Source: Myxococcales bacterium
GTDB lineage: Bacteria > Myxococcota > Myxococcia > Myxococcales > JAJYLH01
Assembly (NCBI GenBank): GCA_021787845.1
Contig: JAJYLH010000001.1
Location: forward strand, 238,736-302,735
DNA: 64,000 nucleotides
Reading direction: 5' to 3'
Positions within the stretch are counted from its first letter, which is position 1, and each line of letters starts with the position of its first letter. A program made the translations under genes and the position numbers. Shown here in pieces: positions 1 to 21,297 of the stretch. Below the pieces are notes generated by a model. That model worked only from the letters and a program-made list of their open reading frames with translations. It did no database searches and was not told the DNA's origin.

Positions 1-1998
1 CTGGAAGCCGCCGGTGAAATCGAGAGAGGCAGCGCCCCTGGTGAGATGGAGCGCTTCTACCTTCCATTCGTCCGCGCCGGTCATCGTCGCGTCGACAGAG
101 CCCGCCGGGAACCGCTCGCCGAAGAGCAGCGCGTTCTTCACCTTCAGGTGGGCGGCCGCGTTCAGCTCGGCGGCGGGGCCGGAGGTGGAGAGGGTGCCGC
201 TCACGAGCGCGTCCGTCCTCCCGGCGAGCTCTCCCAAGACCGGCGCGTAGCCGCGGGCGACGCCGGCGAGGTCCGAGAGGCGCGCGTCTTGAACCTGCAC
301 CGAGCCATCGAGCCGGGCGTGGTGGAACAGGTCCATCGACGCCCGTCCGCTCCAGCGACTGTGCCCGATGAGGCCGCTCGCCCGGGGAACGGTGAGGATG
401 CCGCGGCCCAGGTCCAGGTCGGCGCTCGCCTGGGCGAAGCCGAGCTGGGTCTTCATCACGCGCAGGTGGGCGATGGCCGCGTCGGCCTGGATGTCGAGGG
501 CGTCGAAGGGCCCGTGCAGCCGGCCAGCGAGGGTACCCGTTCCCCGGAGCGCGGCGCTCGCAAAGGGGCTGAAGTCCGCGAGGGAGAGGCGGGAGAAGTC
601 GTAGGCGAGGTCGAGCCCGCGCCGGGCGGAGAAATCGATGTCGCCGCGCACGTCTCCGGCGGACCCCGGAGTGGTGATGCGGGCGCCTTGGATTTCGAGC
701 CGGTCGCGGAGGATGGCGAAGCGCGCGGCGATCTTCCCCTCGCGAAAGCCGACGTACTGCTGGCGCGATTCCAGCCGCCGCCGCCAGGGACGGTCGTAGA
801 CGCCGAAATACGGAATCCGGGCGGCGAGGTCTCCTTCGAGCCGAAGGCCTCCGGGACCGGCAAAGTCCCCCCGCAGCGCCGTCGCCCCCCGCAGCTCCAG
901 GTCGACCGGCAGCCCGGGAACCCCGAGCTTCGAGAGCAGCTCGCCGAGCCTCAGCCCTTCCAGCCGTCCTTCTGCCCGCACCGAAAAGGGCGGCGCGAGG
1001 CCGACCGTGCCGGTCAGCAGGACCTTCCCGCTCGGGAACGGCATCACGAAGCGGTCGACCGAAAGCTCTTGGCTCGTCGCGTGGAGGGTGGCGTCGAAGT
1101 CGCCCGGCAGGAACGGGCCGACCTTCGCGTCGCGGACCTGGAGCGTTGCCGTTGCCCGGTAGCCCTGCCGGCCGAACGCGACCGTCGCCTGTGCCAGCGC
1201 GCTTCCCTTCAGGCCCCGGACGTTCGCCAGCAGGTGGTCGCCGAGCCGCGCGAGGTCGACCCGCACCGTCGCGCTCGCCGTCCCGCGCAGGGCGCAGACG
1301 TCGGCGAAGGTCGCTTGCGCAAAGACCGAGCCCTCCTCCGTCGCGAGGTCCAGCGACCGGATGCGCGCCGTCCGGTTCGCGAGGTCCAGGTCTCCTCGGA
1401 GGCGTGCCCGCTCGGTCGATTCTTCGCCGGTCTGATCGACGAGCCTCGCTCTTCCGACCGAGAGGTCGACCGCGAGCGTGTCGCCCTCGCCGGCGACGCG
1501 CGCGCCGATCCCCTCCGCCTGGAGCCGCCGCCGGCCCGGCAGGCGCAGGTCGACCGTGCCGCCGGTCAGGGTCACGGTCCCGATTTCCAACCGTCCCAGG
1601 TCGGGCAGGCACGGAGAGCGGGACCGCTCCGGCACTCCGTTCGCGCGCGGCGGTGTCGAGAGGTCGAGAGCGACGCGGGGCCGGTCGATTTCCACGCCGT
1701 CGACCCGGAGGCGGCCTCCGAACAGAAACCGCCGGTCGACCCGCGCCGCCAGCCGCCGCGCGGTGAACAGCGGCTGCGACGCGGGACCGATGCGCACGTC
1801 GTCGAGCACCACGGTGGCCGACAGCGGTCTCACCCGGCAGAGGCCGATCCGGACGGGCTCGGCGGAAGCATCCCGCAGCGCCGCTTCGGCTACCCGGCAC
1901 AGCTCCCGCCCTCCGACGGGCGACCGGGCGAAGAGGCCCGCCAGGACGACCACCGCCGCCGCCGAAAGCAGCATCGCCGTGAGCAGCCTGCGGGTCAT
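1..1998 (-). CDS. AsmA-family protein, N-terminal about 665 aa (C-terminus lies beyond the window's left edge)
   Basis: The minus-strand frame is open from an ATG near 1998 to position 1. It is not in the ORF track because no stop falls in the window. The translation begins MTRRLLTAMLLSAAAVVVLAGLFA (signal/TM) and continues with low-complexity AsmA/TamB-like repeats (GxLxL, DLxL motifs). Recognised by composition only. Confidence 0.5.
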   Translation of the reverse strand, partial: MTRRLLTAMLLSAAAVVVLAGLFARSPVGGRELCRVAEAALRDASAEPVRIGLCRVRPLSATVVLDDVRIGPASQPLFTARRLAARVDRRFLFGGRLRVDGVEIDRPRVALDLSTPPRANGVPERSRSPCLPDLGRLEIGTVTLTGGTVDLRLPGRRRLQAEGIGARVAGEGDTLAVDLSVGRARLVDQTGEESTERARLRGDLDLANRTARIRSLDLATEEGSVFAQATFADVCALRGTASATVRVDLARLGDHLLANVRGLKGSALAQATVAFGRQGYRATATLQVRDAKVGPFLPGDFDATLHATSQELSVDRFVMPFPSGKVLLTGTVGLAPPFSVRAEGRLEGLRLGELLSKLGVPGLPVDLELRGATALRGDFAGPGGLRLEGDLAARIPYFGVYDRPWRRRLESRQQYVGFREGKIAARFAILRDRLEIQGARITTPGSAGDVRGDIDFSARRGLDLAYDFSRLSLADFSPFASAALRGTGTLAGRLHGPFDALDIQADAAIAHLRVMKTQLGFAQASADLDLGRGILTVPRASGLIGHSRWSGRASMDLFHHARLDGSVQVQDARLSDLAGVARGYAPVLGELAGRTDALVSGTLSTSGPAAELNAAAHLKVKNALLFGERFPAGSVDATMTGADEWKVEALHLTRGAASLDFTGGFQ

Positions 1999-2092
1999 CC
2001 CCATCCACGGACGTCAACGACCAGACGTGCCGGAAACCTTCGCCGCTCGCCGATGAGCGCCGCCAGCTTCGACGTTCCCTCCCGCGGAAGCT

Positions 2093-3121
2093 TTACGCTT
2101 TTTGGGCGCCCTCGGAAAGAAAGCGCTCGAGGTCGCCCGGGTCGGCCGCCGTCCCGTTCGCTGCCGCACCCGCCGGGTCGCGGGCGGCGTTCTGGTCCCC
2201 CGCGGGTCTCGGCGCCGGCCTGGTCACCGGCGGCGCTGCTGCTTCCCGGACGACCGGCCGGGCCGCCGGATGCGCGGCCCCCGTGGGGGGCGGCTGCGCT
2301 GTCGGACCCTCGACGAGACCGAAATCGGTCGCGCAGAGCCGGACCAGGTCGGCGTTGACGAGCGACCGCTTCATCGTCGCTCCTTCGAAGAGGCAGTTGT
2401 CGCACAGGGTGTTGATCAGCCGCGGGATTCCTCCGGTGAAGCGGTGGACGGCCGCCACGGCCTCGGCGGAAAACGGCATCCTGGTCGCCCCGGCGATCTT
2501 CAGGCGGTGCTTGATGTAAGCCTCGGTCGCCTCGGCGGACAGGGGCTGGAGGCGGGTCTTCAGGCTCACCCGCTGGTCCAGGGGCGGGTCGAGCTTGAGG
2601 TGCTGCTCGAGCTCCGGCAGCCCGAAGAGCACGATCGTCAGGAGCTTGTGCTCGGGCAGCTCGAGGTTCAACAGACCGCGAAACTCCTCCATCACCTCGC
2701 GGTTCTCGAGCATCTGCGCTTCGTCGATCAGCAGGACCGCCTTGCGGCCCGACTCGTGAATCGTCAGCAGCCGCTGATAGAGCTGGCCGAGAAGGGTCAG
2801 CTTCTCGTCCGAGGGCTCTTCCACTCCGAGCTGGAGCGCGATGCGCTTCAGGAGCCACTGCGCGGTGATGCCCGAGTGGATGATGACGAGCAGAGCCGCC
2901 TCGTACTCGTCCTCCGCGAGGCTGTCCAGGAGCCGCCGGGCGAGGGTGGACTTGCCCGCCCCGACGTCGCCGACGAGGAGCGCGAGCCCTTTCGCCTGGC
3001 TCACGACGTAGGTGAGCCGCTCCAGCGCCTGCGCGTGCGAGGCGCTGTTGTAGTAGAACTGGCTGACCGGCGCGTTGGAGAATGGCTCCTGCTTCAGGCC
3101 GAAGTGTGCGAAATAGCTCAT
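2093..3121 (-). CDS. ExeA/GspA/MshM-like AAA+ ATPase (secretin or pilus assembly associated)
   Basis: 342-aa ORF with Walker A GDVGAGKST and Walker B LLIDEAQ. The N-terminus MSYFAHFGLKQEPF is typical of ExeA/MshM. The C-terminus is a Pro/Ala-rich tail with no obvious peptidoglycan-binding domain. Confidence 0.75.
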   Translation of the reverse strand: MSYFAHFGLKQEPFSNAPVSQFYYNSASHAQALERLTYVVSQAKGLALLVGDVGAGKSTLARRLLDSLAEDEYEAALLVIIHSGITAQWLLKRIALQLGVEEPSDEKLTLLGQLYQRLLTIHESGRKAVLLIDEAQMLENREVMEEFRGLLNLELPEHKLLTIVLFGLPELEQHLKLDPPLDQRVSLKTRLQPLSAEATEAYIKHRLKIAGATRMPFSAEAVAAVHRFTGGIPRLINTLCDNCLFEGATMKRSLVNADLVRLCATDFGLVEGPTAQPPPTGAAHPAARPVVREAAAPPVTRPAPRPAGDQNAARDPAGAAANGTAADPGDLERFLSEGAQKA

Positions 3122-3292
3122 CTCGGTAAGTCACCCGTCTCGTCGATCGACCGCGCTCTTCTCAAGTGTCGCCCAAGGGCCGGCCGAAGCGCCAGTTTCG
3201 TGTCCGGGTGGCTCTCGCCTGGCAAAGCGAGCGACGGCAGCCGGCCGCTCGCCGCTCTGTCGGGCGGGCAGGGCTCTGGCGCGATGGCTCGT

Positions 3293-6200
3293 TCAGAGAA
3301 AGCCGATCTTGCGGCCCTTTCTCGGGACCGCAGCCGGCGGCGCCTCGCGCGGCGGACGGGCTGGCGGCGCCAAGGCGCGATCGGTCGCCGGGACCGGGTG
3401 GACGGGCTTCGACTCGCCGCCGGTCCCGGAGACCAGCGGCCGCAGCCGCTGGGCGCGCGCCTGGGCGTCGCGAAACGCGGGGTCGGCGCGGACGATCCGC
3501 GAAAAGTGGTCGAAGGCGGCAGGGAGCTGCTCGAGCTCTTCGGCGCAGGCGCCCAACTCGTAGTGCACGGCCTTCGAGGCATCCAGCGTCAGGCCCGGCG
3601 TCTTGAGCGCGCGCTCGAAACGGTCGACCGCCGCCGCCAGGTCGCCGCGCTCCCGCTGGCAGAGCCCGAGGGCGATCAACGCATCGATGGTGCGCCGCCG
3701 GTCCTGGAGGGCCGCCTCGAGCTGCTCGATCGCGGCGTCGAACCGGCCCATCTCGAAGTAGGCGATGCCGAGGTCGTAGGCGCCCTCGACCTCGCCACCG
3801 GCCCGAGCCCGACGCGAGGCCGGGGCTCGAGTCGCCAGGGAGGAGCCCTCCAAGGTGGAGGGAGCGGCTTCGCTGGCCGCCTTGGCGGCGATCGCCTCGA
3901 AGGCACCCTCGAGCTCGTCCGCCAGGTCGGACTCGGAGGGCGTGGGATGCGCCGCGCGGCCACCCGGCTCACCGGCCGGCGGTCCGCCCGCGAGGCTCTT
4001 CTCGAGGGCGAGCGCGCGCGGATGCGTCGGGGCCTGGGCCAGCACCTGGGCGAGCGACTCGCGGGCATCGTCGCGAAGGCCCTGCTGAATCAGGAACTCG
4101 ATTTCCGCGAGATCCTCTTCGAACGAATCCGCGCCGGGCGCCTGAGGCCCGTCGCCCGGGGGGACCGCTTGCGGCTTTCGGGAGGCCTGCTGGTCGGCGG
4201 CAACGGAGCGGGTAGGCGCCGGGCCGGTCGGGCGCGGGGCCGGCGGCGAAGGCGAGGAGGGCCTCTGGTCGAACAGCGCGAACGGGTCGGGTCGAATCGG
4301 TTCGGGCCTGGGCTCGGTCCGGTGCGGGCCGGTCGCGCGGTCGAGCGCGCGGTCCACTTCGTCGTCATCGAGGTCGATCGATGGGCGCGCCGCCGGAGGC
4401 CGAGGAGCGGCGTTGTCGAGCACCACGGCCTCTTCCTTCAGGTCGTCGTCGTCCCAGGGCGTCAAGACGGGGTGCGCTTGCGCGCTCTCGGCGCTGGGAG
4501 GAATCGTCGAGCCGGTATGGATCTCGAACCCGACGTCGTCGTCTTGCGCCTCGTCGGCCGGGAGCGCTGGCGCGCTCTCGGCGCTGGGAGGAATCGTCGA
4601 GCCGGTATGGATTTCGAACCCGGCGTCGTCGTCTCGCGCCTCGTCGGCCGGGAGCGCTGGCGCGCTCTCGGCGCCGGGAGGAATCGTCGAGCCGGTATGG
4701 ATTTCGAACCCGGCGTCGTCGTCTCGCGCCGCCTCGGCCGGGAGCGCCGCCTGGCTCTCGGCGCCGGGAGGAATCGTCGAGCCGGTATGGATTTCGAACT
4801 CGGCGTCGTCGTCCAGCGCCTCGTCGGCCAAGAGCGCCGCCGCGCTCTCCATCTCGTCCGGCTCGATGATCGGATCGTCGGGACCGGCGGCGGCCAGCGC
4901 CGGATGATCGGGCGCGCGCCGGGCAAGATCGCCCGCGTACTGCTGCTCCCGTTCGCGGTCGCCCGCCGCATGCGCGAGCTCGACCATCCGCTCGAGCAGA
5001 GCGATCGCTTCGGAAGGCTTCTCCTGCCGGTCGTAGATGGTGAGGAGCCGCTCGTTGGCCGGCAGGCTCGCCGGGTCGAGCGCGAGCGCGCGGGCGATGT
5101 GCTCGGCTGCCTTCGGGACCAGGCGGAACTTCAAGAAGACATCGGTTTCGATCACCAGCTTGTCGACGCTCTCGGGTTCGGCGGCCGGTGGCGGCGCGGC
5201 CCGCGCGGGGGCGGGCGGCACGACGAGAGGGGACCCCACCGGCGAGGGCGTGAGGATGGGCGGCGCCATCGGGGAAGGCGTGAGGATGAGCGGCGCGATC
5301 GGCGAGGGCGTGAGGACGGGGCGCGCGACCGGAGAGGGCGTGACCCGAGGCGATCCATCAGGCGGCAGCACGAACGCCGGAAGCACGATCGCCTTGCCAG
5401 GAGCGGTTCCGCCCCCCGACAGGGCAGCCGCTGGCACCAACACCGGCTCGAGGCTCGCGAGCGCTTCGGTCGCTTCCGGGTCGCCGGGCGCGAGCAAGAG
5501 AATCCGGGTCAGCACCTCGCGCCGGGCCTCGCGGGCACCTTTCTCCTCGTGCACCCGCGCGAGCTCGCGCAGGACCGAGACCGTCTTCGCCGGCTGTCCG
5601 TTGTCCGTGAACGCCGCCGCGAGCAGCGACAGCGTCTGGGGGTCCTTCGGGTCGTGCCGGAAGCAGACCTGGAGCTTGTTCAGTGCCCGGCGGGGGTCCT
5701 TGCGGGCGAGATAGCTCTGCGCGAGCTCGCGGGCGACGGCTCCGTCGTCGGGCACCAGTTGGCTGATGCGCTCGAGCACCCGCAGGTGGTCCTCGGACCG
5801 CTGGTTCTTCTTGAGGTGGGCGGCGGCCTTGTCGAGCTCCTGGACCGCTTCCGGGACCATTCGCTCCCGCGCGTAGAGCTCGCCCAGCTTCACCCGGTTC
5901 GCGACGTTGTCCGGGTCGAGGTCGACCATCCGCTTGAGCGCCGACAGCGACTCCTTGACGTTTCCCGACTGGTCCTGCTGGTTGGCGACGAGCTGGTACT
6001 GCTGGGTCGCCTCGCCGATGAGCCCGAGCTGCTGGTAGAGCTGGGCGAGGCGGAGGTGGATTTCCAGGCGGTCCTCGCCCAGCTTGAGCACCTGCTTGTA
6101 GACCGACACCGCCTTGAGGAAGAAACCCTGCTCGGTGTAGCCCTGCGCGACCTTGAGCAACAGCTCGGTCGCTTCCTTCGGCCGGTTCGACTTCTGGTGG

Positions 6201-6337
6201 ATCTCCGCCAGCTTCTGCAGGGCCCGGATGTCCTTCGGGTCCGCGTCGAGGATGCGCTGGAGCTCCTTGGCCGCCTTTTCGAGCTGGCCCTTGGAGGCGA
6301 GCTTGCCCGCCGACTCGAAGATCTTGGTCTTGTCCAT
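3293..6337 (-). CDS. TPR-repeat protein with internal acidic tandem repeats (MshN/FimV-like)
   Basis: Within track ORF 3293..6436, the start is placed at the internal MDKTKIFESAGK. TPR blocks occur at both ends and a Pro-rich acidic middle contains four copies of a 31-aa repeat. It sits immediately upstream of the ExeA-like ATPase, which matches the mshN-mshM pairing. Confidence 0.65.
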   Translation of the reverse strand: MDKTKIFESAGKLASKGQLEKAAKELQRILDADPKDIRALQKLAEIHQKSNRPKEATELLLKVAQGYTEQGFFLKAVSVYKQVLKLGEDRLEIHLRLAQLYQQLGLIGEATQQYQLVANQQDQSGNVKESLSALKRMVDLDPDNVANRVKLGELYARERMVPEAVQELDKAAAHLKKNQRSEDHLRVLERISQLVPDDGAVARELAQSYLARKDPRRALNKLQVCFRHDPKDPQTLSLLAAAFTDNGQPAKTVSVLRELARVHEEKGAREARREVLTRILLLAPGDPEATEALASLEPVLVPAAALSGGGTAPGKAIVLPAFVLPPDGSPRVTPSPVARPVLTPSPIAPLILTPSPMAPPILTPSPVGSPLVVPPAPARAAPPPAAEPESVDKLVIETDVFLKFRLVPKAAEHIARALALDPASLPANERLLTIYDRQEKPSEAIALLERMVELAHAAGDREREQQYAGDLARRAPDHPALAAAGPDDPIIEPDEMESAAALLADEALDDDAEFEIHTGSTIPPGAESQAALPAEAARDDDAGFEIHTGSTIPPGAESAPALPADEARDDDAGFEIHTGSTIPPSAESAPALPADEAQDDDVGFEIHTGSTIPPSAESAQAHPVLTPWDDDDLKEEAVVLDNAAPRPPAARPSIDLDDDEVDRALDRATGPHRTEPRPEPIRPDPFALFDQRPSSPSPPAPRPTGPAPTRSVAADQQASRKPQAVPPGDGPQAPGADSFEEDLAEIEFLIQQGLRDDARESLAQVLAQAPTHPRALALEKSLAGGPPAGEPGGRAAHPTPSESDLADELEGAFEAIAAKAASEAAPSTLEGSSLATRAPASRRARAGGEVEGAYDLGIAYFEMGRFDAAIEQLEAALQDRRRTIDALIALGLCQRERGDLAAAVDRFERALKTPGLTLDASKAVHYELGACAEELEQLPAAFDHFSRIVRADPAFRDAQARAQRLRPLVSGTGGESKPVHPVPATDRALAPPARPPREAPPAAVPRKGRKIGFL
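4478..4850. repeat. Four tandem copies of a 93-bp repeat (in-frame, coding) inside the TPR gene
   Basis: The motif gctctcggcgc(t/c)gggaggaatcgtcgagccggtatggat(c/t)tcgaac recurs at about 4481, 4574, 4667 and 4760. On the minus strand it encodes the repeat DDDAGFEIHTGSTIPPGAESAPALPADEAR(D/Q). Confidence 0.85.
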
Positions 6338-6591
6338 CGGCGGCAGAAGCGTCACCTCTCGCGAGCGGGCCGTCGCCGGCGCCGCGCCAAGCGACCGGAC
6401 ATGACCTGGCAGCGCTCCCGGACACCTGGAGGGCACCCGGAAGGCCTCGGGGAGGCATCGGGGAGCCGAGGCGCCCCCACTCGAGCTTCGAGGCTAGAGG
6501 GCGACCCCGGCGCGTGTCAACAAAACGTCCGGGAAAGCAGCGGGTTCCGGTGCAGCCGCCGACCGAGGGGAGCCTGGCTGCTCGAGGGCGT

Positions 6592-7167: not shown

Positions 7168-7303
7168 CTCGAGGGGTCTCCTGGAAGTGAAAGATGCGTT
7201 GCTCTGGAAGCGCTCTCCGGTGGGCGCGGCGCGTTCTTCTCGAGCGCGTCCCGCCGCTGTCGCGCTCCGACGGCCGGCGTCTGGGGAAAGGTTCTCGGCA
7301 GCG

Positions 7304-7666: not shown

Positions 7667-7861
7667 CAGCCCTCCTGCTGCGCCGCTGCCCTCACGGGCT
7701 TCCCCAAGCCCGGCGGCTTCGAGGAGCCTTGGACGTTAGCCGGGAGGGCGCCGGGGCGTCAAGACGGGAAGCGCGAGGATTCGCCGGCGGCACCAAGAAA
7801 AGGAGGGCCGGGCGCGAGATCGATTCCGACGAGGCTGGGCACCCGGCGGGCGTCCGAACCG

Positions 7862-10537
7862 TCAAGGCGCCGGGATTACCGGCACGTCCGAGTCATCGAC
7901 GACCGTGTATTGCCCAGCCACCGTCGTGGCCGTCGCGATCACCGTGTCCGCGAAAGGCGCTGCGCCGGGTGCGGTGTATCCCACGAGCTCGAACGCGCCC
8001 GAGCCCAACGCCCCTCCGACCGGAATGATGTGCGTCTCCAACTTGCAGATGTGCGTCTGCTCGTCGCAGGTGGTGACGTCGGCGACCGACAGGGTGCCGA
8101 ACCCGTCGAGGTATTGGTTCGGCACGGGCGCGAGCAGCGTGACCTGGCCCTTGCCCACCACGCCCGCCCCAAAGGTGGTGGCCTGGTAAGAGGGCGCGTT
8201 GCCGTTCTCGTCCTGCCAGGTGAACTGGACCGTGGCGGACGCGCCGGGGGCCAGGGCGAGGCTCGATGGATCCGGGTTGCCGTACTTCCCATGGCTGGTC
8301 ATGAGGATGTGCCCCACCGCCCAGAGAGTCGTGTTCGCATCCCACTTGCCGTTCGGTCCGTCGTACTTGCCGTTCCCGTTCTCGTCGATGAAGAACTCGC
8401 CCGGGTCCCACTTGTTGTTGTCATTGGCGTCGATGTATGGCTCGCCTTCGTCGATGAAGTCCTCCCCTGGGTCGTACTGGCCGTTGCCGTTCGCGTCGAA
8501 GAACCCCTCCTCGCCTTGGGTGGTGACGATGAAGGTGACGAGGCCGTCACGCGGATTGCGTACCCTGGGCGACCCGTCGGCCGCCACGCAGGGGTCGTTC
8601 GGGTCTTGCGGCACCGTGAACTCGTTGGGCCAGGGCGGCACGTCCTCGGGCATGCGTGCGCCGAGCGTGGAGAGAACGTTCGTCGCCCGCCCCAGGCTCC
8701 CGTCGTCGGTCTTCGTTGGGACGGCCACCGGCAAGGGAGAAGGCGGACCGAACAGCCCGGCTTCGGTGTACCAGGTGACGACGCCCCCCGCGCCCAGCCG
8801 GTTGTTGAACCGGTCGCCTACCACTGCCGTGCAGTTCTCCTTGATGTCCGTCCACATGAAGCTGCAGTCGTTCCTCACGAGGGAGGGGATGGAGGCGTGT
8901 TCGCAGCGGACGGAGAAGTTTCGCCCATTGGCCTTGGCTCCGACGACGGCGATGGTCGAGCTCGTCGTCTCGGCGATGACCTTGCCGGTCGTGTCCTGGC
9001 CGAGGTAGGCCTGCGCGTGCACGGCGAACGTTCCCGCCGAGGTGCCGGAGTAGACGGTGAGGCTGGCCTCGCCGTTCACGCCCAGCGGCGTCTGCTGCGG
9101 GGCGAAGGAGACGCCGCAGTCGCTGTCGATGGAGAACACGAGCGTCGCTTGGCCGTTGAACGGCTGGTCGGTGGAGTCGAGAAGCTCGAACGTCAGCACC
9201 TGCTGTTCGCGAAAGCCGCTCGTCTTCACGCCCATGATGCCGAAGTCGGGGTCGTTGACGGGCGGGAGGAAGACGAGCGTTCCAGGAAGGACGATGTCGA
9301 ACGGAGTGTCGGCCCGGATGTCCGTGCCGTGGACGACCGCGCTGATCGTGCCGTTCGCCGGGCTATCGCCGGGCTGGAACCAGACGGTGGCGTCACCGTT
9401 CGCGTCGGTGGTCGCGCTCACGGTCGCGGCGAAGGTGCCGTTCGCGGCCGTCGCGAACTGACCGATGGCGCCGTCGACCGAGAAGTCTACGGTCTGGCCG
9501 AGGCCGGGAGTCTTGGTGTCGTTGGTGATGAGCGTCGCGACGACCTTGAACGGCGGGCTCTCGGCCGGAGCCCGCATCGCGGCGCGGGGCTTCACGCCCG
9601 AGTCGTCGTAGAGCGTCAGCACCAGGCTGTACTGATCTGGGCTGGGAACGTAGACATGGAACGGGACGTCCACCCGCTGCGACGTTCCCTGAAGGACCAC
9701 GGTGATCGTGCCGTTCGCCATCGTGCCGCCAGGCTTGAACCACGCGGTGGCCTTGCCCCCCACGTCGGTGGTCTCGCTCTGGGAAGCGCCATAGTCGCCG
9801 TCTGGCGTGGTGGCGAATTGGCCGATGTCGTTGTCCGCGGAGAAGACGACGGTCTGGCCAGCGCCGGGATTGCCGTGCTGGTCGGTGACGATCGCGGTGA
9901 TGCTGAACGGCGGGCCGTTGGTCAGAGCCGAGCCGGTGGTGAAGGGGAGCGGCACATCATTCGAGTCGTAGACCTCCACCGCCAGGCTGAAGGCGCCTTT
10001 CCCCGCCGTCGCGGCCGTCTTGCAAGCGCCGCTCGTCGCGTCGCAGGTGCCGCTCGCTCCGCTGGCGTCGGAGCAGGCCTTGCCGTCGCAGGCCGCCTGA
10101 CTGCAGTCCGGATGCGAGGCGTCGCAGGTCGAGGAGGTGGTCGAGCCCGTCGAGAGGGTGAACCCGACGGCGGTGGTCAACGCTTCACCGCCGATGGTGC
10201 CCGACGCCTTGACCACCGCGACGGTCCCCGTCGAGCACGTGCTGTCCTTCGTGGGGTCGCAAGCCGTGAACTTGGCCGTCGCCGTGCCGTCGCTGCCGAG
10301 GGTGACCGACGGGTGATCGACCGTTCCCTCCGTCGCCGTCAGGGTGATCTTGGCACCACTCGCGGGCGTGGTGGTCGTGCCCTCCACCGTTCGCCCGAAG
10401 ACGGTGAACGACACCTCCTTGCCCGGAGCGATGGTGTGGCCGCCCTGGACGTTGATGGTCAAGAGGTTCTGCTTGCTCACCTGGGAGCAGGCGGCGGCGA
10501 AGAGCCCGGCGGCGATGAGCGCGCGAGCGCGGAGCAT
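7862..10537 (-). CDS. large secreted/lipoprotein with Ig-like (Big) domains and thrombospondin type-3-like Ca-binding Asp repeats
   Basis: N-terminal signal with Cys (MLRARALIAAGLFAAACSQ). Repeated about 100-aa Ser/Thr/Gly-rich beta-domains follow. An acidic DxDxDGxxD cluster (FDANGNGQYDPGEDFIDEGEPYIDANDNNKWDPGEFFIDENGNGKYD) is present. Confidence 0.65.
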   Translation of the reverse strand: MLRARALIAAGLFAAACSQVSKQNLLTINVQGGHTIAPGKEVSFTVFGRTVEGTTTTPASGAKITLTATEGTVDHPSVTLGSDGTATAKFTACDPTKDSTCSTGTVAVVKASGTIGGEALTTAVGFTLSTGSTTSSTCDASHPDCSQAACDGKACSDASGASGTCDATSGACKTAATAGKGAFSLAVEVYDSNDVPLPFTTGSALTNGPPFSITAIVTDQHGNPGAGQTVVFSADNDIGQFATTPDGDYGASQSETTDVGGKATAWFKPGGTMANGTITVVLQGTSQRVDVPFHVYVPSPDQYSLVLTLYDDSGVKPRAAMRAPAESPPFKVVATLITNDTKTPGLGQTVDFSVDGAIGQFATAANGTFAATVSATTDANGDATVWFQPGDSPANGTISAVVHGTDIRADTPFDIVLPGTLVFLPPVNDPDFGIMGVKTSGFREQQVLTFELLDSTDQPFNGQATLVFSIDSDCGVSFAPQQTPLGVNGEASLTVYSGTSAGTFAVHAQAYLGQDTTGKVIAETTSSTIAVVGAKANGRNFSVRCEHASIPSLVRNDCSFMWTDIKENCTAVVGDRFNNRLGAGGVVTWYTEAGLFGPPSPLPVAVPTKTDDGSLGRATNVLSTLGARMPEDVPPWPNEFTVPQDPNDPCVAADGSPRVRNPRDGLVTFIVTTQGEEGFFDANGNGQYDPGEDFIDEGEPYIDANDNNKWDPGEFFIDENGNGKYDGPNGKWDANTTLWAVGHILMTSHGKYGNPDPSSLALAPGASATVQFTWQDENGNAPSYQATTFGAGVVGKGQVTLLAPVPNQYLDGFGTLSVADVTTCDEQTHICKLETHIIPVGGALGSGAFELVGYTAPGAAPFADTVIATATTVAGQYTVVDDSDVPVIPAP

Positions 10538-10605
10538 GGCGTCCTCCCACAGAGTCAAAGCGAGCAATCCGGGCGCGTCCGGGCCCGGTCTTCCCCAAGG
10601 CGCCG

Positions 10606-11223
10606 CTAGCCGCCCGTCGACGAGGGACAGGTCCGCCCGTCAGCCTGCCCGAGTGAGTCCAGACCGCACGTCGCGGTCGGCGACGCGCACAGCTTGAGGC
10701 ACCCAGCGCAGACCTGGACCGGGAACGTCTCGGACGCGGTCGACCAGAGCGAGCCGTCCTCGTAGTGACCCTTGAACATCACATCCACCAGGAGGCTGCC
10801 TTCGCTCTCCTGGAGGCTCGTGCCGTTGGCGCTCGTCAAGAGGCTCACCACCATGTCCAATTTGGAGCTGGGCGGGATGACCCCGGAGACCGCGACGGTC
10901 TCCGCCGGCGGCGTCGGCAGCCCGTTGTTCCCATGGAACTGCAGGACTTCCGAGTCGACGTAGGCCATGTCGGTCGTCGTCTGGTAGGCGGTCGCGTTGT
11001 CCGCAAGCTGATTGGTCAGCTCGACCCCGACCATGTACCCGGTTCCCTGGCTGGAATCGAGCAGCCCCTCCCCCACCTGCGCGCTCGTGTCCGCGGTGCA
11101 CGCCGTCGTCGTCACCTTGAGCGGGTAGAAGCCGGTGATCACCATCGGACCCGTGGCACTGGCGCACGAGACGCCTGCGGCCAGCGCCAAGAGCGCGACA
11201 CCGCGGACGAGCGAAGGTCGCAT
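10606..11223 (-). CDS. Cys-rich lipoprotein, hypothetical
   Basis: Only the C-terminal 205 codons of track ORF 10606..12723 are used. It starts MRPSLVRGVALLALAAGVSC (lipobox) after a GAGGAGAGAGAC RBS. The rest of that ORF overlaps pilQ in another frame and is an artefact. Confidence 0.5.
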   Translation of the reverse strand: MRPSLVRGVALLALAAGVSCASATGPMVITGFYPLKVTTTACTADTSAQVGEGLLDSSQGTGYMVGVELTNQLADNATAYQTTTDMAYVDSEVLQFHGNNGLPTPPAETVAVSGVIPPSSKLDMVVSLLTSANGTSLQESEGSLLVDVMFKGHYEDGSLWSTASETFPVQVCAGCLKLCASPTATCGLDSLGQADGRTCPSSTGG

Positions 11224-11285
11224 GTCTCTCTCCTCTCTTCGGTCAGCCGCCCGTCGCCCGAGGGCGGCTCCTGATGTGCCCTTCG

Positions 11286-14042
11286 TCAGGGCGCCGCCGT
11301 CTCCGTCACCACCGATTCCTCGCGGTTGACGATGTGCGGGGTGATGAAGATCAGCATTTCCGTCCGTTGGTCCGAAACACTCTTTTGCGAGAACAAACGG
11401 CCGATGAGCGGGATCTTGTCCAGGAACGGGACCCCTTTGTCGGAGAGCGAGTTCGACCGGGTGTAGATGCCGCCGATCACGGTGGTGTCGCCGTCCTTGA
11501 CCACCACCTCGGTCTGTGCCTGCCGCTGGGAGATCGCCGGCTGGCCGTTCGCGCCGGTGAACGCCGCGTCGGGCTGGTTGTTGCTCGCGTTGATCTTCAT
11601 CACGATCGAGCCATCGGCGGTGACGTGCGGGGTCACCTGGAGCTGCAACATCGCCTGCATGAAGGTGGTGTTCGTCCCCGCCGCCGAGACCTCGCTGTAG
11701 GGAATCTGCACGCCCTGGCTGATGGTGGCCGACTTGTTGTCGAGGGTGGTCACCTTCGGCGCGCTCACCGTCTTGATCGTTCCGTTGACCTCGGCCGCGC
11801 TCAAACGCAGGTTGAGCTGCGCCGCTCCTCCCGCCGACCCGAAGACGAAGCCGACGCCGCCGCCGCTCCCGGTGCCGATGGCCGTCGGGAAGTTGATGAC
11901 GAAGTTCGGGTTGGCGCTGGTCGCGCTGGTCGGCGTCTGCCCGTCGGTCGCCGCCCCCGCGACCGAGACCAGGTTCGGAAAGATGAGACCGGTGGGATTG
12001 CCGGTGGCGGGGCTCGCCTGGAGATTGCCGCCCCACTGGATGCCGACCGACTGGGTGAAAGTGCTCTGCGCCTCCACGATCCGCGCCTCGATCAGCACCT
12101 CGGGAGTCTGGGTGTCGAGCAGGTGGACGAGCTGCTCCGCCTTCGCGAGCGAGCTGACGATGTCCTTGACGACGAGCACGTTGGTCCGGGCGTCGACCGA
12201 GACCGTCCCCCGGCTCGTCAGCACGTCCTTCACCCGCGAGGCGACCTGCTCGGCGGTCGCGTAGTTCACCGGGATCAGCCGGACCTTGAGCGGCTGCCGG
12301 AGGATGTCTTCCTTCTGCTCCTCCACCGCCTGCTTCTTCTCCGCGGCGAGCGTCGCGAGCGGCGCGATGCGGATGATGTCGCCCACGTTCTCCCGGCCCA
12401 GACCCTTGGTCTTCAACACCACGTCGAGGGCCTCGTCCCACGGCACGTTGCGCAGCCGCACCGAGACCGTCCCCTTGACGTCGCTCGAGGCGACGATGTT
12501 GCGCTTCGCGATCTCCGCGATGGCCTGGATGAACTGGATGATGTCCAGGTCTTTCGCGGTGAAGTCGACCCGCCGCCCCGTGTACTCCGGCTCGGCGCGA
12601 GGCCCGGCCGCCCCCGCGTAGGCCCGCGCCTCGCCCAGGAACCCACCGGGACCGCTCCCGCCTCCCGGCGGATCGGCCTGGGCCAGCTCGACCGGACGGC
12701 GGTCGCTCTGGGTGAAGGTCCACACGATGCCCACCGACGGCCCCACCCGCATCTTCGCGAGCCGGGTGCGGACCGCGCGCGCTCCCCGCTTGAGCCCGAC
12801 GACCAGCTTCACCCCTTCGGGGACCCCCAGCGAGGCCACGTACGCCACCGGGCCGGCGAGCAGCGACGCGTCCAGCTTCCGGGCCAGTCGCTCGGGGAGA
12901 GCGGCGCCGTGCAGTAGGAGCGTATCCGTCCCCCCCGGCGCCGCCGACTGGTCGACCGCGACCTGCCGGTCGAGCACCACCACCACCCGGGTCGAGCGGC
13001 CGTGGGTCGACACGTCCAGGGAGCGTACCCGCGGCGTCCGCCCCAAGGAAGCGCTGCCGCTGCCCGGGCCCGCGGCGAGCGGCTCCTCTCGCGCCGAGGC
13101 GACCATCCGGGGAATCGCCCGGGGGTCGGAAAGCCGTCCAGCACCGAGCCGGCGCGCCAGGACCGGCGCCGGCGTCAGACCCACCTCGACGATGAGCCCG
13201 TGCCCGGTCCGGAGGATGTGGAACGGCGGGAACCGGTCGCCCCGGGCCTCGAGCACCACCCGCAGCGCCCCCTGTCGCGGGGCGACCCTCAGGGCGGTGA
13301 CGTCTCCGACCTGGCGGCGCTCGTCGCGCGTCTTGCCGGTGAACCCGGCGAGGTCCAAGGCGATGCGCCCGGGATTCTTGAGCTCCATCAGCTCGTACTT
13401 GGCGATGGGGCCGTCGCAGACGAGCTCGAGCCGCACCTTCTGGCCCGCGCGCGAAAGCCGGGCAAGGACGAGGCGCGACCCGCCCCGCACCCCTTCCGGC
13501 AGCCGGTCGACCTCGACCCGCACCACGTTGTCGCCGAGGGGCGCCGCCGGCTTGGGGCTAGGAGCGGTGGCGGCTACCGGCTGCGGTGCCGGGGTGCCCG
13601 TGAGCGAGACGACGAGGCCGGTGGGCGAAGACTGGACCTCGAACCGGGTGCCCGCCCGGACGGTGATGACCACCCGGCCGACTCGCGAGCGGGCGTCGTC
13701 GAATTGGGTCGCCTGGATGCTTTGCACGAGCCCCTGGCCGGCGATCCTGCCCGAGCGCTCGAGGGCCGTCACGTCGGCGCTGGACAGGTCGATCACGACC
13801 CGCGGCGGCTGGTCGAGCTTGAAGACGGTGAACGTCGGCTCCCGGTCGGCGATGAGCCGGACGATGCCCGTCTTCAGGGTCGCGTGGAGGTCGACTCGGG
13901 TCACCTTCGCCACCGGCGGCGGGACCTGGGCGCGCGCGGTCTGGCCGAAAGCGCCCGAGACCGAGAGAACCGCCGCGATGAGGGGCGGAAGCCCTTTCGG
14001 GCGGCGAGCGCGGAAAAAGCGCCTCATGCGGCGATCCTCCAA
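11286..14042 (-). CDS. pilQ: type IV pilus secretin PilQ (three N-terminal AMIN-like domains plus C-terminal secretin domain)
   Basis: The C-terminal secretin signature (VLIEARIVE...GGIYT...VPFLDKIPLIGRLF...MLIFITPHIV) and N-terminal AMIN-like beta-repeats are present. The alternative start MRRFF is 15 nt downstream. Confidence 0.9.
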   Translation of the reverse strand: MEDRRMRRFFRARRPKGLPPLIAAVLSVSGAFGQTARAQVPPPVAKVTRVDLHATLKTGIVRLIADREPTFTVFKLDQPPRVVIDLSSADVTALERSGRIAGQGLVQSIQATQFDDARSRVGRVVITVRAGTRFEVQSSPTGLVVSLTGTPAPQPVAATAPSPKPAAPLGDNVVRVEVDRLPEGVRGGSRLVLARLSRAGQKVRLELVCDGPIAKYELMELKNPGRIALDLAGFTGKTRDERRQVGDVTALRVAPRQGALRVVLEARGDRFPPFHILRTGHGLIVEVGLTPAPVLARRLGAGRLSDPRAIPRMVASAREEPLAAGPGSGSASLGRTPRVRSLDVSTHGRSTRVVVVLDRQVAVDQSAAPGGTDTLLLHGAALPERLARKLDASLLAGPVAYVASLGVPEGVKLVVGLKRGARAVRTRLAKMRVGPSVGIVWTFTQSDRRPVELAQADPPGGGSGPGGFLGEARAYAGAAGPRAEPEYTGRRVDFTAKDLDIIQFIQAIAEIAKRNIVASSDVKGTVSVRLRNVPWDEALDVVLKTKGLGRENVGDIIRIAPLATLAAEKKQAVEEQKEDILRQPLKVRLIPVNYATAEQVASRVKDVLTSRGTVSVDARTNVLVVKDIVSSLAKAEQLVHLLDTQTPEVLIEARIVEAQSTFTQSVGIQWGGNLQASPATGNPTGLIFPNLVSVAGAATDGQTPTSATSANPNFVINFPTAIGTGSGGGVGFVFGSAGGAAQLNLRLSAAEVNGTIKTVSAPKVTTLDNKSATISQGVQIPYSEVSAAGTNTTFMQAMLQLQVTPHVTADGSIVMKINASNNQPDAAFTGANGQPAISQRQAQTEVVVKDGDTTVIGGIYTRSNSLSDKGVPFLDKIPLIGRLFSQKSVSDQRTEMLIFITPHIVNREESVVTETAAP

Positions 14043-14085
14043 AGAGCGACGGCGGCCTCGGCCGCCGAGCTGGAGCGGCGAGACA

Positions 14086-14658
14086 TCATGGCGCCGGGCT
14101 TCCCACCACCCGTTCGTTCGAGATGGCGTGATCGGCCACTTCTTCGGCCGCGGTCTTCGGCATCTTGAGATGGAGGTACTCGTGCGAGACGGTGCCGGTC
14201 TGCTGGTCGGCGATGGTCTCGGTGATCGTCAGATCCTCCTGGCCGATGTGGCTGACCATTCCCCAGTCGCGGCCGACGAAGTCGCCCAGCCGGACGAGGT
14301 GGGCCTTCCCGGTCGGGTCCTGAATCAGCGCCTGGGGCGCGGCCGTGCCAGTCATCGTCATCTTCAGCACGAGCTGGTCCAGGTCGAACTTCTGCAGGGC
14401 TTGCAGGGGGCGACTCTCCAACGCCACGTCGTGGATGTAGCGGGTGCCGCTGGCCCCTTGGTTCGGGTTCTGGAAGGGGTCCCGCTTGCCCTTCGGGTCG
14501 TAGACGTAGAGGTCGGCAGCGGTCTCGGTGTCCGCCAGGGTGTCGTCGGCGACGGCGACCTTCTTGTGGCTCGCGGTCAACGAGCGGGTCGGCGGCAAGG
14601 TGGGCGCGCAGGCGGCGAAGGCGAGGAGCGCCGAGAGGGCGAGCTTCGGAGGCATCAT
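14086..14658 (-). CDS. pilP: type IV pilus assembly lipoprotein PilP
   Basis: 190 aa with a lipoprotein signal (LLAFAACAP). It lies between pilO and pilQ and has a PilP-like C-terminal beta-domain. Confidence 0.75.
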   Translation of the reverse strand: MMPPKLALSALLAFAACAPTLPPTRSLTASHKKVAVADDTLADTETAADLYVYDPKGKRDPFQNPNQGASGTRYIHDVALESRPLQALQKFDLDQLVLKMTMTGTAAPQALIQDPTGKAHLVRLGDFVGRDWGMVSHIGQEDLTITETIADQQTGTVSHEYLHLKMPKTAAEEVADHAISNERVVGSPAP

Positions 14659-15260
14659 CGGCGTCCCTTCTTCGCCGGCGGTGCCGGAAGGAAGCTGAAG
14701 GTGGTCACGGAGAAGGCCGCGTCGACGATGATTTTGTCGTTCTTCATCCGCGGGTTCTTGAGGTCGAGGTTCGCGACGTTGACGATCCGTTTCAGGTGCC
14801 GGAGGGCGTCGAAGAAGACCGCGATTTCCGGGTAGGCGCCGGTCGCCGACATCTGGAACGGGATCTCCGCGTAGAACTGCGCGCGCCGTTCGGCCTTGGG
14901 CTCCAAGGTGTTGATCGAAAGCCCCGCCTTCTGCGCCGTCGCGTAGACGCTCTCGATGATTTCCGGGATGTTCGCCTGCTCGGGCATCTCCGTCAGCGCC
15001 TTCTTCAGCTTCTGCTCCAACAGCTCCTTCTGGCGGCGATAGACCGGCAGGTTGTCGGCCGTCGCCTTGTCCTCGATCATCTCGTCTTCCAGGTGGCGGC
15101 TCTGCGCGATGGCGCTGTTGGTGTCGTCCCAGATGCTCGAGACGAAGAGGAAGTAGTTGCCCGCGGTCAGCCCTCCGGCGATGGCGAGGACGATCGCCAC
15201 CTTCCCCCCCAGCGGGATCCGCCGGACGAAATCCATCACCTGTTCAACCGGGGAGGCCAT
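14655..15260 (-). CDS. pilO: type IV pilus assembly protein PilO
   Basis: 201 aa with a single N-terminal TM helix and a coiled-coil region. Its position and 4-bp overlap with pilP support the call. Confidence 0.75.
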   Translation of the reverse strand: MASPVEQVMDFVRRIPLGGKVAIVLAIAGGLTAGNYFLFVSSIWDDTNSAIAQSRHLEDEMIEDKATADNLPVYRRQKELLEQKLKKALTEMPEQANIPEIIESVYATAQKAGLSINTLEPKAERRAQFYAEIPFQMSATGAYPEIAVFFDALRHLKRIVNVANLDLKNPRMKNDKIIVDAAFSVTTFSFLPAPPAKKGRR

Positions 15261-15266
15261 CGTCTC

Positions 15267-16853
15267 TCACCGTCTTGGCGTGTTCGACACGCCGCAGCTC
15301 ACCGAGAAGTCCACCGCGTCCCCCGCGGCGCGGGTCGGTCCGAGCGTGGGAGCGCTGAAGAACTTGGACCCTTCCAGCCGCTTGACGAAGCTCGCCACGT
15401 CGTCGTAGGAGGCGGCGCTCCCGGTCATGGTCGCCTTTCCCCCCTGTATCTCGAACGTCTTCAGCCACACCCGCTTCGGGATGATCGTCGACAGCTCGTC
15501 CATCACCCGCACCGGGCCGGTCCGCCCGTCCTTGAGGGTCTGGAGCACCTTGAGCTTCTGCTCGATGTTCGCTTTCTCCGCCTTGATGTTCTTGACGTCG
15601 CCGATGATGCTCTTGAGCTTCTTGATCTGAACGTTGAAGTTCTCGACCCGTTCGTGCGCCGCGTTCAGGCCCTGCTGGGTGGCGTCGTACCAGAAGTAGT
15701 TGCCGACGGCCGCCCCGAAGAAGACCAACGCGAACAACACCAGCCACTGCTTGCCGACCTCGCGCTTCTTCGAGGCGCGCACCGGCAGGAGGTTGATGTC
15801 GTCGTCGACCTTTCGCAGCGCGAGCCCGACGCCCACCGCCGACGACGGCGCGATCTCCATCAGATAGGCGGGGTCGAACTTGCGGTTGTCGATCTCGATC
15901 GCCTTGAACGGGTTGAGGATTTCGACCGGGACCCCGATGCGCTGCTCGATGATCTTGAACAGGCTCGGAATCTTCGCGGTGCCGCCCGAGAGGTAGACCT
16001 TGGAGATGCGCGCGTCCGCCGCGGTCGCGGCGTAGAAGTCCAGGCTGCGCTGAATCTCCCCCGCGAGCTGCGCGGCGACGCCCTGGATGACCCGCTCCAC
16101 CTCCTGCGGAACCACCGAGTCGGTCTCGCTCAGGTCGCCCCCGACCTTGAGCTTCTCCGCCTCGTCGTAGCTGACGTTGAGCTGCTTCTGAATCTCCTCG
16201 GTGAACTGGTTGCCGCCCATCGAGACGTCGCGGGTGAACGTCGTGACGCCCTGGGCGATGACGTTGATGTTGACGACGCTCGCGCCGACGTTGATGAGAA
16301 CCACCGTGTCGGTGTGCGAAATCTCGTAGGAGGTCTCGAACGCGCGTTGGACCGCGAAGGCGTCGACCGCGACCACCGTGGGGACGAGGCCCGCCTCCGC
16401 GATCACCGCGCTGTAGTCGTTGATCATGTCCTTCTTGGCGGCGACCAGAAGGACGTCCATGTGGCCGGTGGCGTCGTCGCCGGTGCCGAGGAGCTTGACG
16501 TCGATGTTCACGTCCTTGACGTCGAAGGGGATGTACTGCTCCGCCTCCCACTGGATCGATTCGTCCAGCTCCTCCTTCGTCATCTTCGGCAGCGAGATCT
16601 TCTTGATGATGACGCTGTGGCCGCTGATGCCCAGGGCGACGTTCTTGTTCTTGATCTTCGCCTGGGCGAACAGCTCCCGGATCGCGTCGACGATGGCCGC
16701 GCTGTTCATCAGCGCGCCGTCGACGATCGCTTCCGGCGGCAGCGGCGCCACGCCGAACGAGTCGAGGACGAAGCCGCGCTTGCTCTCCCGCAGGTGGACG
16801 AGCTTCACGCTCGAGGAGCCGATGTCGAGGCCGACCGCGAGCTTCTGCGCCAC
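15267..16853 (-). CDS. pilMN: fused PilM-PilN (actin-like ATPase PilM joined in frame to the PilN N-terminal INLLP motif, TM helix and periplasmic domain)
   Basis: Single 528-aa ORF. Residues 1 to about 350 are PilM-like (MAQKLAVGLDIGSSSVKLV...GLALRKVDD). This is followed without a stop by DINLLPVRASKKREVGKQWLVLFALVFFGAAVG and a PilN-like domain. Confidence 0.8.
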   Translation of the reverse strand: MAQKLAVGLDIGSSSVKLVHLRESKRGFVLDSFGVAPLPPEAIVDGALMNSAAIVDAIRELFAQAKIKNKNVALGISGHSVIIKKISLPKMTKEELDESIQWEAEQYIPFDVKDVNIDVKLLGTGDDATGHMDVLLVAAKKDMINDYSAVIAEAGLVPTVVAVDAFAVQRAFETSYEISHTDTVVLINVGASVVNINVIAQGVTTFTRDVSMGGNQFTEEIQKQLNVSYDEAEKLKVGGDLSETDSVVPQEVERVIQGVAAQLAGEIQRSLDFYAATAADARISKVYLSGGTAKIPSLFKIIEQRIGVPVEILNPFKAIEIDNRKFDPAYLMEIAPSSAVGVGLALRKVDDDINLLPVRASKKREVGKQWLVLFALVFFGAAVGNYFWYDATQQGLNAAHERVENFNVQIKKLKSIIGDVKNIKAEKANIEQKLKVLQTLKDGRTGPVRVMDELSTIIPKRVWLKTFEIQGGKATMTGSAASYDDVASFVKRLEGSKFFSAPTLGPTRAAGDAVDFSVSCGVSNTPRR

Positions 16854-18506: not shown

Positions 18507-18552
18507 GCCTAGATTATGGACCTTTTCTCCGCGGGGGCGACGGCCATGCGGC

Positions 18553-21270: not shown

Positions 21271-21297
21271 CGACACCCTCCCCGCGAACGGCGCCAG

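Follow-up and report, generated by a model that had tools for sequence, protein, structure and literature searches.

The genes behind pilMNOPQ in a Myxococcales genome very probably correspond to the mglC-sgmX-tamB neighbourhood of Myxococcus xanthus

Do the genes that follow pilMNOPQ in a myxobacterial genome form an accessory module of the pilus secretin, or do they belong to something else? The question arises from a 64,000-nucleotide (nt) stretch of an uncultured Myxococcales bacterium (assembly GCA_021787845.1, contig JAJYLH010000001.1, positions 238,736 to 302,735), hereafter the window, in which pilMNOPQ and the genes behind pilQ run on the minus strand to the left edge. The original prediction, made from the sequence, read this array as a possible accessory module for secretin assembly or pilus-associated adhesion and did not recognise it as a described arrangement. 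We conclude that the array is very probably the orthologue, in an uncultured Myxococcota genome, of the region MXAN_5776-MXAN_5763 of Myxococcus xanthus, i.e., a conserved neighbourhood of several functional units and not one secretin-accessory module. Gene identities and synteny are observed, and the functions would be those of the counterparts in M. xanthus and Bdellovibrio, transferred by orthology. The main value of the analysis is corrective, as the proposed undescribed module turns out to be the MglC and SgmX neighbourhood, which is well studied in M. xanthus.

Coding frames were chosen by the GC content of third codon positions (GC3) in the window, which has about 70% GC and whose raw list of open reading frames (ORFs) is full of spurious frames, and the products of the chosen frames were scanned against Pfam and NCBIfam. 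Positions 1..16853 are filled by 11 minus-strand genes from the fused pilMN to the left edge (Table 1), so the co-directional array was predicted correctly, and PilM_2, PilN, PilO, PilP and Secretin plus AMIN domains occur in the gene order pilMNOPQ. A Logan contig (L081), identical to the window with 0 mismatches over 4509 nt, reaches past the left edge.

In M. xanthus DK1622, MXAN_5776-MXAN_5763 comprises pilMNOPQ, MXAN_5771, mglC, efp, accBC, sgmX, the ATPase gene MXAN_5765, the TamB gene MXAN_5764 and the Omp85 gene MXAN_5763. The window shares these genes, their order and their strand, and the two ATPases are 64% identical. It differs in the fusion of pilM and pilN, in a Big_1 gene of 891 amino acids (aa) between the MXAN_5771-like gene and mglC, and in the missing accB and accC. 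Moreover, the pil genes of M. xanthus form one contiguous cluster of 17, MXAN_5772-5788 (10.64898/2026.08.28.747804), whereas pilMNOPQ of the window has no other pil genes nearby: pilA, pilB, pilC and pilT were found nowhere in the 64-kb window, and 17-64 kb is housekeeping.

The same order recurs among relatives. An alignment of ATPase homologues was used to fetch the best 80 loci among GTDB species representatives (L001-L080), and gene order was counted from tblastn with the window proteins. All 80 belong to the Myxococcia (Myxococcota) and include M. xanthus (L035), Corallococcus, Pyxidicoccus, Archangium, Hyalangium, Anaeromyxobacter and many metagenome-assembled genomes. The genes mglC, efp, sgmX and the ATPase gene are co-directional and in the same order in 43/43 loci whose upstream flank is 7 kb or longer, the ATPase gene is followed by tamB and then tamA in all 58 loci with at least 6 kb downstream, and pilP/pilQ lie upstream of mglC wherever the flank reaches. 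In L035 the order pilQ, 230-aa ORF, mglC, efp, accB, accC, sgmX, ATPase corresponds to MXAN_5772 down to MXAN_5765. The order persists even where protein identity between genomes has fallen to 25-50%. Chance does not account for the shared direction and order, since all related loci with sufficient flank show them, and the synteny check proposed with the original prediction came out in favour of conservation from pilQ through the ATPase gene to tamB-tamA, with no break after pilQ.

The junctions within the array are more varied than the "short or overlapping" ones first described, which holds for five of the ten (-4 to 68 nt); the other five measure 94, 136, 171, 195 and 254 nt. These longer junctions leave room for separate promoters, and the gaps of 136-254 nt that precede mglC, efp, sgmX and the ATPase gene fit several transcription units, housekeeping efp included, where a single accessory module had been proposed. 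The first unit, pilMN-pilO-pilP-pilQ, would encode the alignment subcomplex and secretin of type IVa pili (T4aP), and the two lipoprotein genes after pilQ (gaps 38-68 nt) are probably co-transcribed with it. The second unit would be mglC, the third efp for a translation factor, and the fourth sgmX-ATPase-tamB-tamA, which corresponds to the putative operon described in M. xanthus. The interval between efp and sgmX varies among the loci: the two genes are direct neighbours, about 250 nt apart, in the window (6338..6591), L001, L011 and the close relative L082, accB and accC stand between them in M. xanthus (L035 4562..6620), and the metagenomic contig L166 has aroQ and pepP in the corresponding zone. 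The middle of the block thus looks like a variable housekeeping cluster.

The protein labelled Roadblock/LC7 in the original prediction is the MglC orthologue, an orphan MglB paralogue. A phmmer search of the PDB aligned its residues 1-120 to residues 1-120 of M. xanthus MglC (7ct3/7cy1, E 7e-33); the Pfam Robl_LC7 match is weak. The residues F25, D26 and I28 are identical in the window protein (...VMGFDGIAV...) and 7ct3, and they are the MglC residues that McLoon et al. 2016 targeted for mutagenesis (PMC4719450). In M. xanthus, MglC is part of the MglA/MglB/RomR polarity module (PMC4719450). Carried over from there, the window protein would be a cytoplasmic Roadblock protein that localises to the lagging pole, has RomR and MglB as direct binding partners and adjusts the reversals of front-rear polarity.

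The tetratricopeptide repeat (TPR) protein has NF052243, "type IV pili formation protein SgmX", as its top NCBIfam match (E 7e-133, 445 bits). Pfam TPR matches lie at residues 8-292 and 847-961 of its 1014 residues with a disordered middle between the blocks, and SgmX is described as a protein of about 1,000-1,060 aa with N- and C-terminal TPR blocks and a long non-TPR region between them (PMC7519303). Over 309 aa the C-terminal block shares 31% identity with its M. xanthus counterpart, down to the terminal RK(I/V)G(F/Y)L, and the slot of the gene, after mglC-efp and directly upstream of ATPase-tamB-tamA, is matched in 43/43 loci including L035. Best match, architecture and position together point to a predicted SgmX orthologue. 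In the work of Potapova et al. 2020, SgmX was shown to bind MglA-GTP and to stimulate the formation of pili (PMC7519303), and Mercier et al. 2020 identified MXAN_5766 as SgmX, the first gene of the putative four-gene operon Mxan_5766-63, with the mimA suppressor mutation in its 5' untranslated region (5'UTR; PMC7668184). As an MglA-GTP effector that switches pili on in M. xanthus (PMC7668184, PMC7519303), SgmX in the window would be cytoplasmic, bring PilB to the leading pole and turn pili on. A sequence scan found no signal peptide, lipobox or hydrophobic segment in it. SgmX and MglC, with neither a signal peptide nor a membrane helix, are cytoplasmic regulators and not secretin-assembly or adhesion factors. 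Both act in type IV pilus (T4P) biology, and the idea of surface genes behind pilQ gets some support from the lipoproteins that follow it.

The acidic repeats noticed in the TPR protein are real, and the 90-nt repeat encodes acidic 30-aa units in the non-TPR middle of SgmX. A second in-frame repeat of the same region (5236..5343, minus strand; 30-nt unit, 3.6 copies) is Pro-rich. The high identity of the repeats suggests recent expansion.

Beyond sgmX and the ATPase gene, tamB runs past the left edge of the window. Its full 1332-aa product, seen in L081, carries DUF748, TamB_N and TamB (PF04357) domains, so the label "AsmA-family" was right for the superfamily and imprecise for the gene, which is specifically tamB. 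The N-terminal hydrophobic segment of TamB (residues 1-29) is a predicted membrane anchor, which fits the layout that defines TamB (anchor at the N-terminus, long beta-rich periplasmic body, TamB/DUF490 domain at the C-terminus). A 1044-aa POTRA plus Omp85 gene overlaps the tamB stop (L081 6507..9641) and is followed by a 298-aa gene and a glycosyltransferase gene. TamB and the Omp85 protein would form an envelope-biogenesis pair resembling TAM, the module for translocation and assembly. The Omp85 protein scores 255 bits with the NCBIfam BamA model (cut-off 297) and 65 bits with the TamA model (cut-off 625), and given the higher BamA score "TamA" may be a loose label for this protein of Myxococcota and Bdellovibrio.

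That the arrangement had not been described did not hold. Milner et al. 2014 reported a transcript shared by the Bdellovibrio TPR gene bd2492 and tamB-like and tamA-like genes, and synteny of this operon with MXAN_5763-5766 (PMC3983030), so that the TPR-(ATPase)-tamB-tamA operon and its M. xanthus/Bdellovibrio synteny have been in print since then. A TPR gene likewise comes first in the operon bd2492-bd2494-bd2495 of Bdellovibrio bacteriovorus, ahead of tamB and a multi-POTRA Omp85 gene whose product was called TamA-like with 7 POTRA domains; T4P-dependent behaviour needs the TPR protein, which is a partner of MglA (PMC3983030). Unlike in the window, no ExeA-family ATPase gene separates the TPR gene from tamB in Bdellovibrio, and the TPR protein there is only 353 aa long. 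TamA is essential in Bdellovibrio, whereas transposon insertions in MXAN_5765-5761 of M. xanthus gave no developmental defect in a transposon-sequencing preprint (2026; 10.64898/2026.08.28.747804).

Several points weigh against equating the array with the M. xanthus region and its functional units. The 80 loci sample one class, and the conserved order could partly reflect shared descent instead of selection. M. xanthus has nothing that corresponds to the Big_1 gene or to the pilMN fusion. The SgmX score of 445 bits stands against an equivalog cut-off of 1800 bits, with only profile positions 1-338 aligning well, and the alignment to SgmX is restricted to the two TPR blocks (about 50% for the N-terminal and 31% for the C-terminal one); we presume that the NF052243 cut-off was set on close Myxococcaceae relatives and treat it as an annotation threshold, not as a biological criterion. 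The functional equivalence with SgmX is one that we infer, as are the unit boundaries, drawn from gap sizes and the published 5'UTR of M. xanthus. Finally, the conservation of the ATPase at the level of elongation factor P (EF-P) implies an important function that the proposed reading does not cover.

The alternative that survives best concerns the two lipoproteins behind pilQ and leaves everything from mglC onwards as described above. It holds that both serve the T4aP secretin as accessories in the outer membrane or at the surface, e.g., in adhesion, anchoring or gating, and we regard it as possible, with the odds nevertheless against it. Both proteins have lipoboxes, and the Cys-rich one stands where the original prediction placed a Cys-rich lipoprotein. 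An exhaustive HMMER search of 1.84e9 proteins yielded 60 representatives of its family, whose hidden Markov model (HMM) matches the post-pilQ ORF in 41/41 Myxococcia loci, including the M. xanthus ORF at the MXAN_5771 position (E 6.5e-30). The pilQ-mglC gap of every related locus is filled by a lipoprotein ORF of 180-265 aa with 5-9 cysteines, a Cys-rich lipoprotein also follows pilQ in L082, and the gap to pilQ is as short as 10 nt in M. xanthus. Cys42, Cys186 and Cys199 are invariant in the family, and the AlphaFold 2 (AF2) model (predicted local distance difference test score 91.4) is an Ig-like beta-sandwich with a disulfide-rich tail. A fold search of the PDB with this model gave only generic Ig-like sandwiches (TRAP-beta, RhoGDI, ApaG; TM-score about 0.4) with no functional hint, and neither a mention of MXAN_5771 nor phenotype data for it were found in the searchable literature, which tells against an accessory role as far as it goes. 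The family is thus conserved at the MXAN_5771 position and apparently unstudied. The gene had at one point been taken for part of a lineage-specific insertion, with no tblastn match and a BLASTP E of 0.17 against the M. xanthus ORF; the family HMM overturned this and identified the genes as orthologous.

The second lipoprotein is less regular in its position. The original prediction described it as a large Ig-like and thrombospondin-3 Ca-binding surface protein; the Ig-like part holds (Big_1, Invasin-like), a conserved motif, GEExFxDxNGNGxYDxGExFxDxGEPYxDxNxN, looks Ca-binding, and no Pfam match to thrombospondin type-3 appeared even at E<=1. The protein had no tblastn match in L001-L080 and is absent from the post-pilQ position in the 41 Myxococcia loci examined and in L082. 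A word-indexed search found 8 homologues and a metagenome pattern scan 352 relatives of the core. Relatives stand directly after pilQ in L086, L089, L158, L163 and L166 (at least four distant lineages besides that of the window, L158 and L163 being related), i.e., in 5 of about 43 other contexts; this lies far above the pil linkage expected of a random gene, about 5e-4 by our own estimate, which is not a computed value. A small lipoprotein lies between pilQ and the Big_1 relative in four of these five pil-linked loci, as in L086 with pilMNOPQ, a 201-aa lipoprotein and then Big_1. What speaks against a common accessory function is that the small lipoproteins of L086, L158, L163 and L166 have no detectable relation to the Cys-rich family, and that most Big_1 members, including the closest homologue P0242 (66%, L084/L085) and high-GC ones of 37-47% identity, are not beside pil genes. 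In a quick neighbour-joining tree of the core region, the window protein falls among high-GC paralogues that are not pil-linked, apart from the other pil-linked members, so the association of Big_1 with pilQ may have arisen more than once.

Two of the metagenome contigs of the Joint Genome Institute (JGI) show further features. L089 (2976..11638) has the layout ponA, pilMNOPQ, aroK-aroB of proteobacteria such as Pseudomonas, into which the gene for a 595-aa Big_1-family lipoprotein (P0248) is inserted directly between pilQ and aroK. L166 (GC 0.49, 1..9823) carries pilQ, then genes for lipoproteins of 189 aa and 776 aa (the larger one Big_1/Invasin_D3), for a TPR protein of 358 aa and for a Roadblock protein, then aroQ and pepP; the Roadblock protein is 33% identical to the MglC of the window. 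A version of the order pilQ-lipoprotein-Big_1-mglC therefore occurs in a very different low-GC lineage.

It is unlikely that the order is a frozen accident, inherited within one bacterial class and functionally meaningless outside pilMNOPQ and sgmX. The 80 loci compared all belong to the Myxococcia, efp is a housekeeping gene, and accB/accC in M. xanthus and aroQ/pepP in L166 give its surroundings the look of an ordinary housekeeping cluster, as such an accident would have it. The TPR-tamB-tamA linkage nevertheless extends outside the class, to Bdellovibrio and Bacteriovorax (PMC3983030), mglC follows pilQ and a lipoprotein gene even in the low-GC L166, and the order outlasts divergence of the proteins to 25-50% identity.

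The ATPase was the centrepiece of the proposed secretin-assembly module, and its predicted coordinates are exact. Its Walker A (GxxGxGKS/T), Walker B (DEAQ) and N-terminal EPF motifs are all ExeA-type, its best NCBIfam match is TIGR03015 (201 bits, below the cut-off of 324.5), and metagenomic homologues carry names such as "ExeA family protein" and "general secretion pathway protein A". With its homologues in the 80 Myxococcia loci it shares 57-71% identity and with metagenomic ones up to 79%, and more than 100 alignment columns are invariant; in tblastn this conservation is close to that of EF-P (55-71%) and far above that of SgmX, MglC, PilQ, TamB and TamA. The AF2 model comprises an AAA+ core (1-270), a disordered Pro-rich linker and a single short conserved C-terminal helix (DLxEIDRYLxGL). 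Its fold neighbours are AAA+ proteins in general (ORC/Cdc6/TnsC/MuB), and a PDB sequence search returned only weak TnsC matches.

With the secretin-assembly complex ExeA/ExeB (GspA/GspB) of Aeromonas the ATPase shares the N-terminal AAA_22 family. ExeA, an ATPase of 60 kDa in the inner membrane, has a transmembrane helix as well as a periplasmic domain that binds peptidoglycan, and acts with ExeB (PMC4098917). The window protein, in contrast, is a soluble protein of 342 aa with a Pro-rich disordered tail: no 19-aa window exceeds a Kyte-Doolittle hydropathy of 1.6, hence no transmembrane helix is predicted, Pfam gave no PG_binding match, and no ExeB/GspB-like gene stands beside the ATPase gene, which is flanked by sgmX and tamB in the window as in every related locus.

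A parallel had been drawn with mshN/mshM of the mannose-sensitive haemagglutinin (MSHA) pilus of Vibrio, where an ExeA-family ATPase gene likewise adjoins a TPR gene in a locus that holds a pilus secretin. In the window, however, the pair is in reversed order and five genes (about 8 kb) from pilQ, and no MshM- or MshN-specific model is among the NCBIfam matches, the ATPase being matched at family level only (AAA_22/TIGR03015). The parallel breaks down at the TPR protein: MshN is reportedly homologous to TadD, without which the Tad secretin does not assemble (10.1101/576694), whereas the TPR protein of the window lacks a signal peptide and a lipobox and matches cytoplasmic SgmX best. The XrtA/PEP-CTERM system is another case of such a pairing; its ATPase model TIGR03015 is the best one for the ATPase and its PrsT model TIGR02917 the second-best for the TPR protein (91 bits). 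The scores are well under the cut-offs of 324.5 and 312.2, and the locus has no XrtA or PEP-CTERM genes. ExeA-like ATPases tend to neighbour TPR proteins, and the resemblance is one at family level.

Published M. xanthus mutants bear on the test that had been proposed, deletion of the ExeA-like gene with a look at T4P-dependent motility. Inactivation of mxan_5765 or mxan_5764 left social (S-) motility unaffected (Mercier et al. 2020, PMC7668184), and Oklitschek et al. 2024 found that MXAN_5763-5765 co-occur with SgmX and that their deletion leaves T4aP-dependent motility intact (10.1101/2024.03.11.584430). The equivalent experiment thus exists and came out negative, and the soluble ATPase is dispensable for pilus-dependent motility in M. 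xanthus. That the post-pilQ genes form a secretin-assembly module, in which the ATPase, an MshN-like TPR partner and AsmA/TamB help PilQ to reach or assemble in the outer membrane, is very improbable, since the features that define ExeA are missing (PMC4098917), the TPR protein is cytoplasmic SgmX (PMC7668184, PMC7519303) and not a TadD homologue like MshN (10.1101/576694), mutants in MXAN_5765, 5764 and 5763 keep T4P motility that requires assembled PilQ (PMC7668184; 10.1101/2024.03.11.584430), and the Bdellovibrio TPR-tamAB operon exists without the ATPase (PMC3983030), all of which outweighs the family membership with its typical EPF motif, the constant linkage of the ATPase gene to tamB-tamA in the same block as pilQ, the constrained job that its conservation implies and the speculation of Milner et al. 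that TamAB activity could affect PilQ assembly (PMC3983030).

Within the neighbourhood shared with M. xanthus, we tentatively hypothesize that the post-pilQ lipoprotein pair is an unrecognised outer-membrane or surface accessory of the T4aP secretin and that the ATPase, which is conserved like EF-P and always encoded between sgmX and tamB, may couple the cytoplasmic SgmX/MglA polarity cue to the TamB-Omp85 envelope machine via its C-terminal peptide, a combined proposal that we hold to be rather unlikely. The locus is mostly ordinary, with a few local oddities and lineage-specific variations. Possibly new are the Cys-rich lipoprotein family, the position of the Big_1 lipoprotein gene, the pilM-pilN fusion and an ATPase conserved like EF-P that has no known phenotype. 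Four modest leads follow from them: a lipoprotein family always beside pilQ, a Big_1 family repeatedly settled behind pilQ in unrelated bacteria, a natural PilM-PilN fusion that mimics GspL, and the constraint on the ATPase.

Table 1. Features of the array and its upstream border, in window positions
Feature	Position	Strand	Details
tamB, 5' half	1..1998	-	first 666/1332 codons; Pfam DUF748
AAA_22/ExeA-family ATPase	2093..3121	-	342 aa; Pfam AAA_22 1.7e-23
sgmX, predicted orthologue (TPR protein)	3293..6337	-	1014 aa; NCBIfam NF052243, Pfam TPR
tandem repeat within sgmX	4470..4849	-	90-nt unit, 4.2 copies, 92% matches; Tandem Repeats Finder
efp (elongation factor P, housekeeping)	6592..7167	-	Pfam EFP_N, EFP, Elong-fact-P_C
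mglC orthologue (Roadblock/LC7)	7304..7666	-	120 aa; PDB 7ct3/7cy1 match
Big_1 lipoprotein	7862..10537	-	891 aa; lipobox LFAAAC; Pfam Big_1
Cys-rich lipoprotein	10606..11223	-	205 aa; lipobox AAGVSC
pilQ secretin	11286..14027	-	913 aa; Pfam Secretin, AMIN (2 stretches), Secretin_N, STN
pilP lipoprotein	14086..14658	-	Pfam PilP; lipobox LAFAAC
pilO	14655..15260	-	Pfam PilO 9e-34; 4-nt overlap with pilP
fused pilM-pilN	15267..16853	-	528 aa; Pfam and NCBIfam
sigma-70-like promoter match	17087..17114	-	upstream of pilMN; 9/12 consensus; weak evidence
divergent short-chain dehydrogenase (SDR) gene	17149..17913	+	next gene upstream of pilMN

In the fused PilMN protein, PilM_2 (8-348) is followed by the INLLP motif of PilN (353), a membrane helix (near 366-389) and the PilN domain (449-521). 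At the junction, ...GLALRKVDDD-INLLPVRASKKRE, there is no stop codon, and the frame reads through into PilN as ...GLALRKVDDD-INLLPVRASKK..., whereas L082 has a stop and a 27-nt spacer. Nearly all other close PilM homologues have about 352 aa. The fusion is rare and is real, because one of identical type occurs in an independent contig (P0122/L091, 81% identity). Its layout, with a cytoplasmic actin-like domain, one membrane helix and a periplasmic ferredoxin-like domain, is shared with GspL of the type II secretion system, a natural fusion of PilM-like and PilN-like parts, and there is a weak Pfam T2SSL match. Unlike GspL, PilMN consists of a true PilM (TIGR01175, 276 bits) and a true PilN that keeps the INLLP PilM-binding motif, and its close relatives keep the genes separate.

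A consensus promoter scan of 1..17300 found 1 sigma-70-like site against 0.5 expected, and terminator-like sites in the same range were as frequent as in shuffled sequence, with none within the intergenic gaps; such a scan is uninformative for a 70% GC genome. Minimum free energy folds of the intergenic gaps gave GC-rich hairpins and no clear intrinsic terminators, and an Rfam scan of the array had no matches.

Upstream of pilMN (16854..23000) lie SDR, MgsA/RarA-type AAA+, cupin and TPR genes, and the SDR gene is also present in the relatives L082 and L091. Elsewhere in the window, and unrelated to the array, the plus-strand gene at 45915..50063 encodes a protein of 1382 aa that combines ASH/HYDIN-like Ig domains with FG-GAP repeats and is probably another large surface protein.

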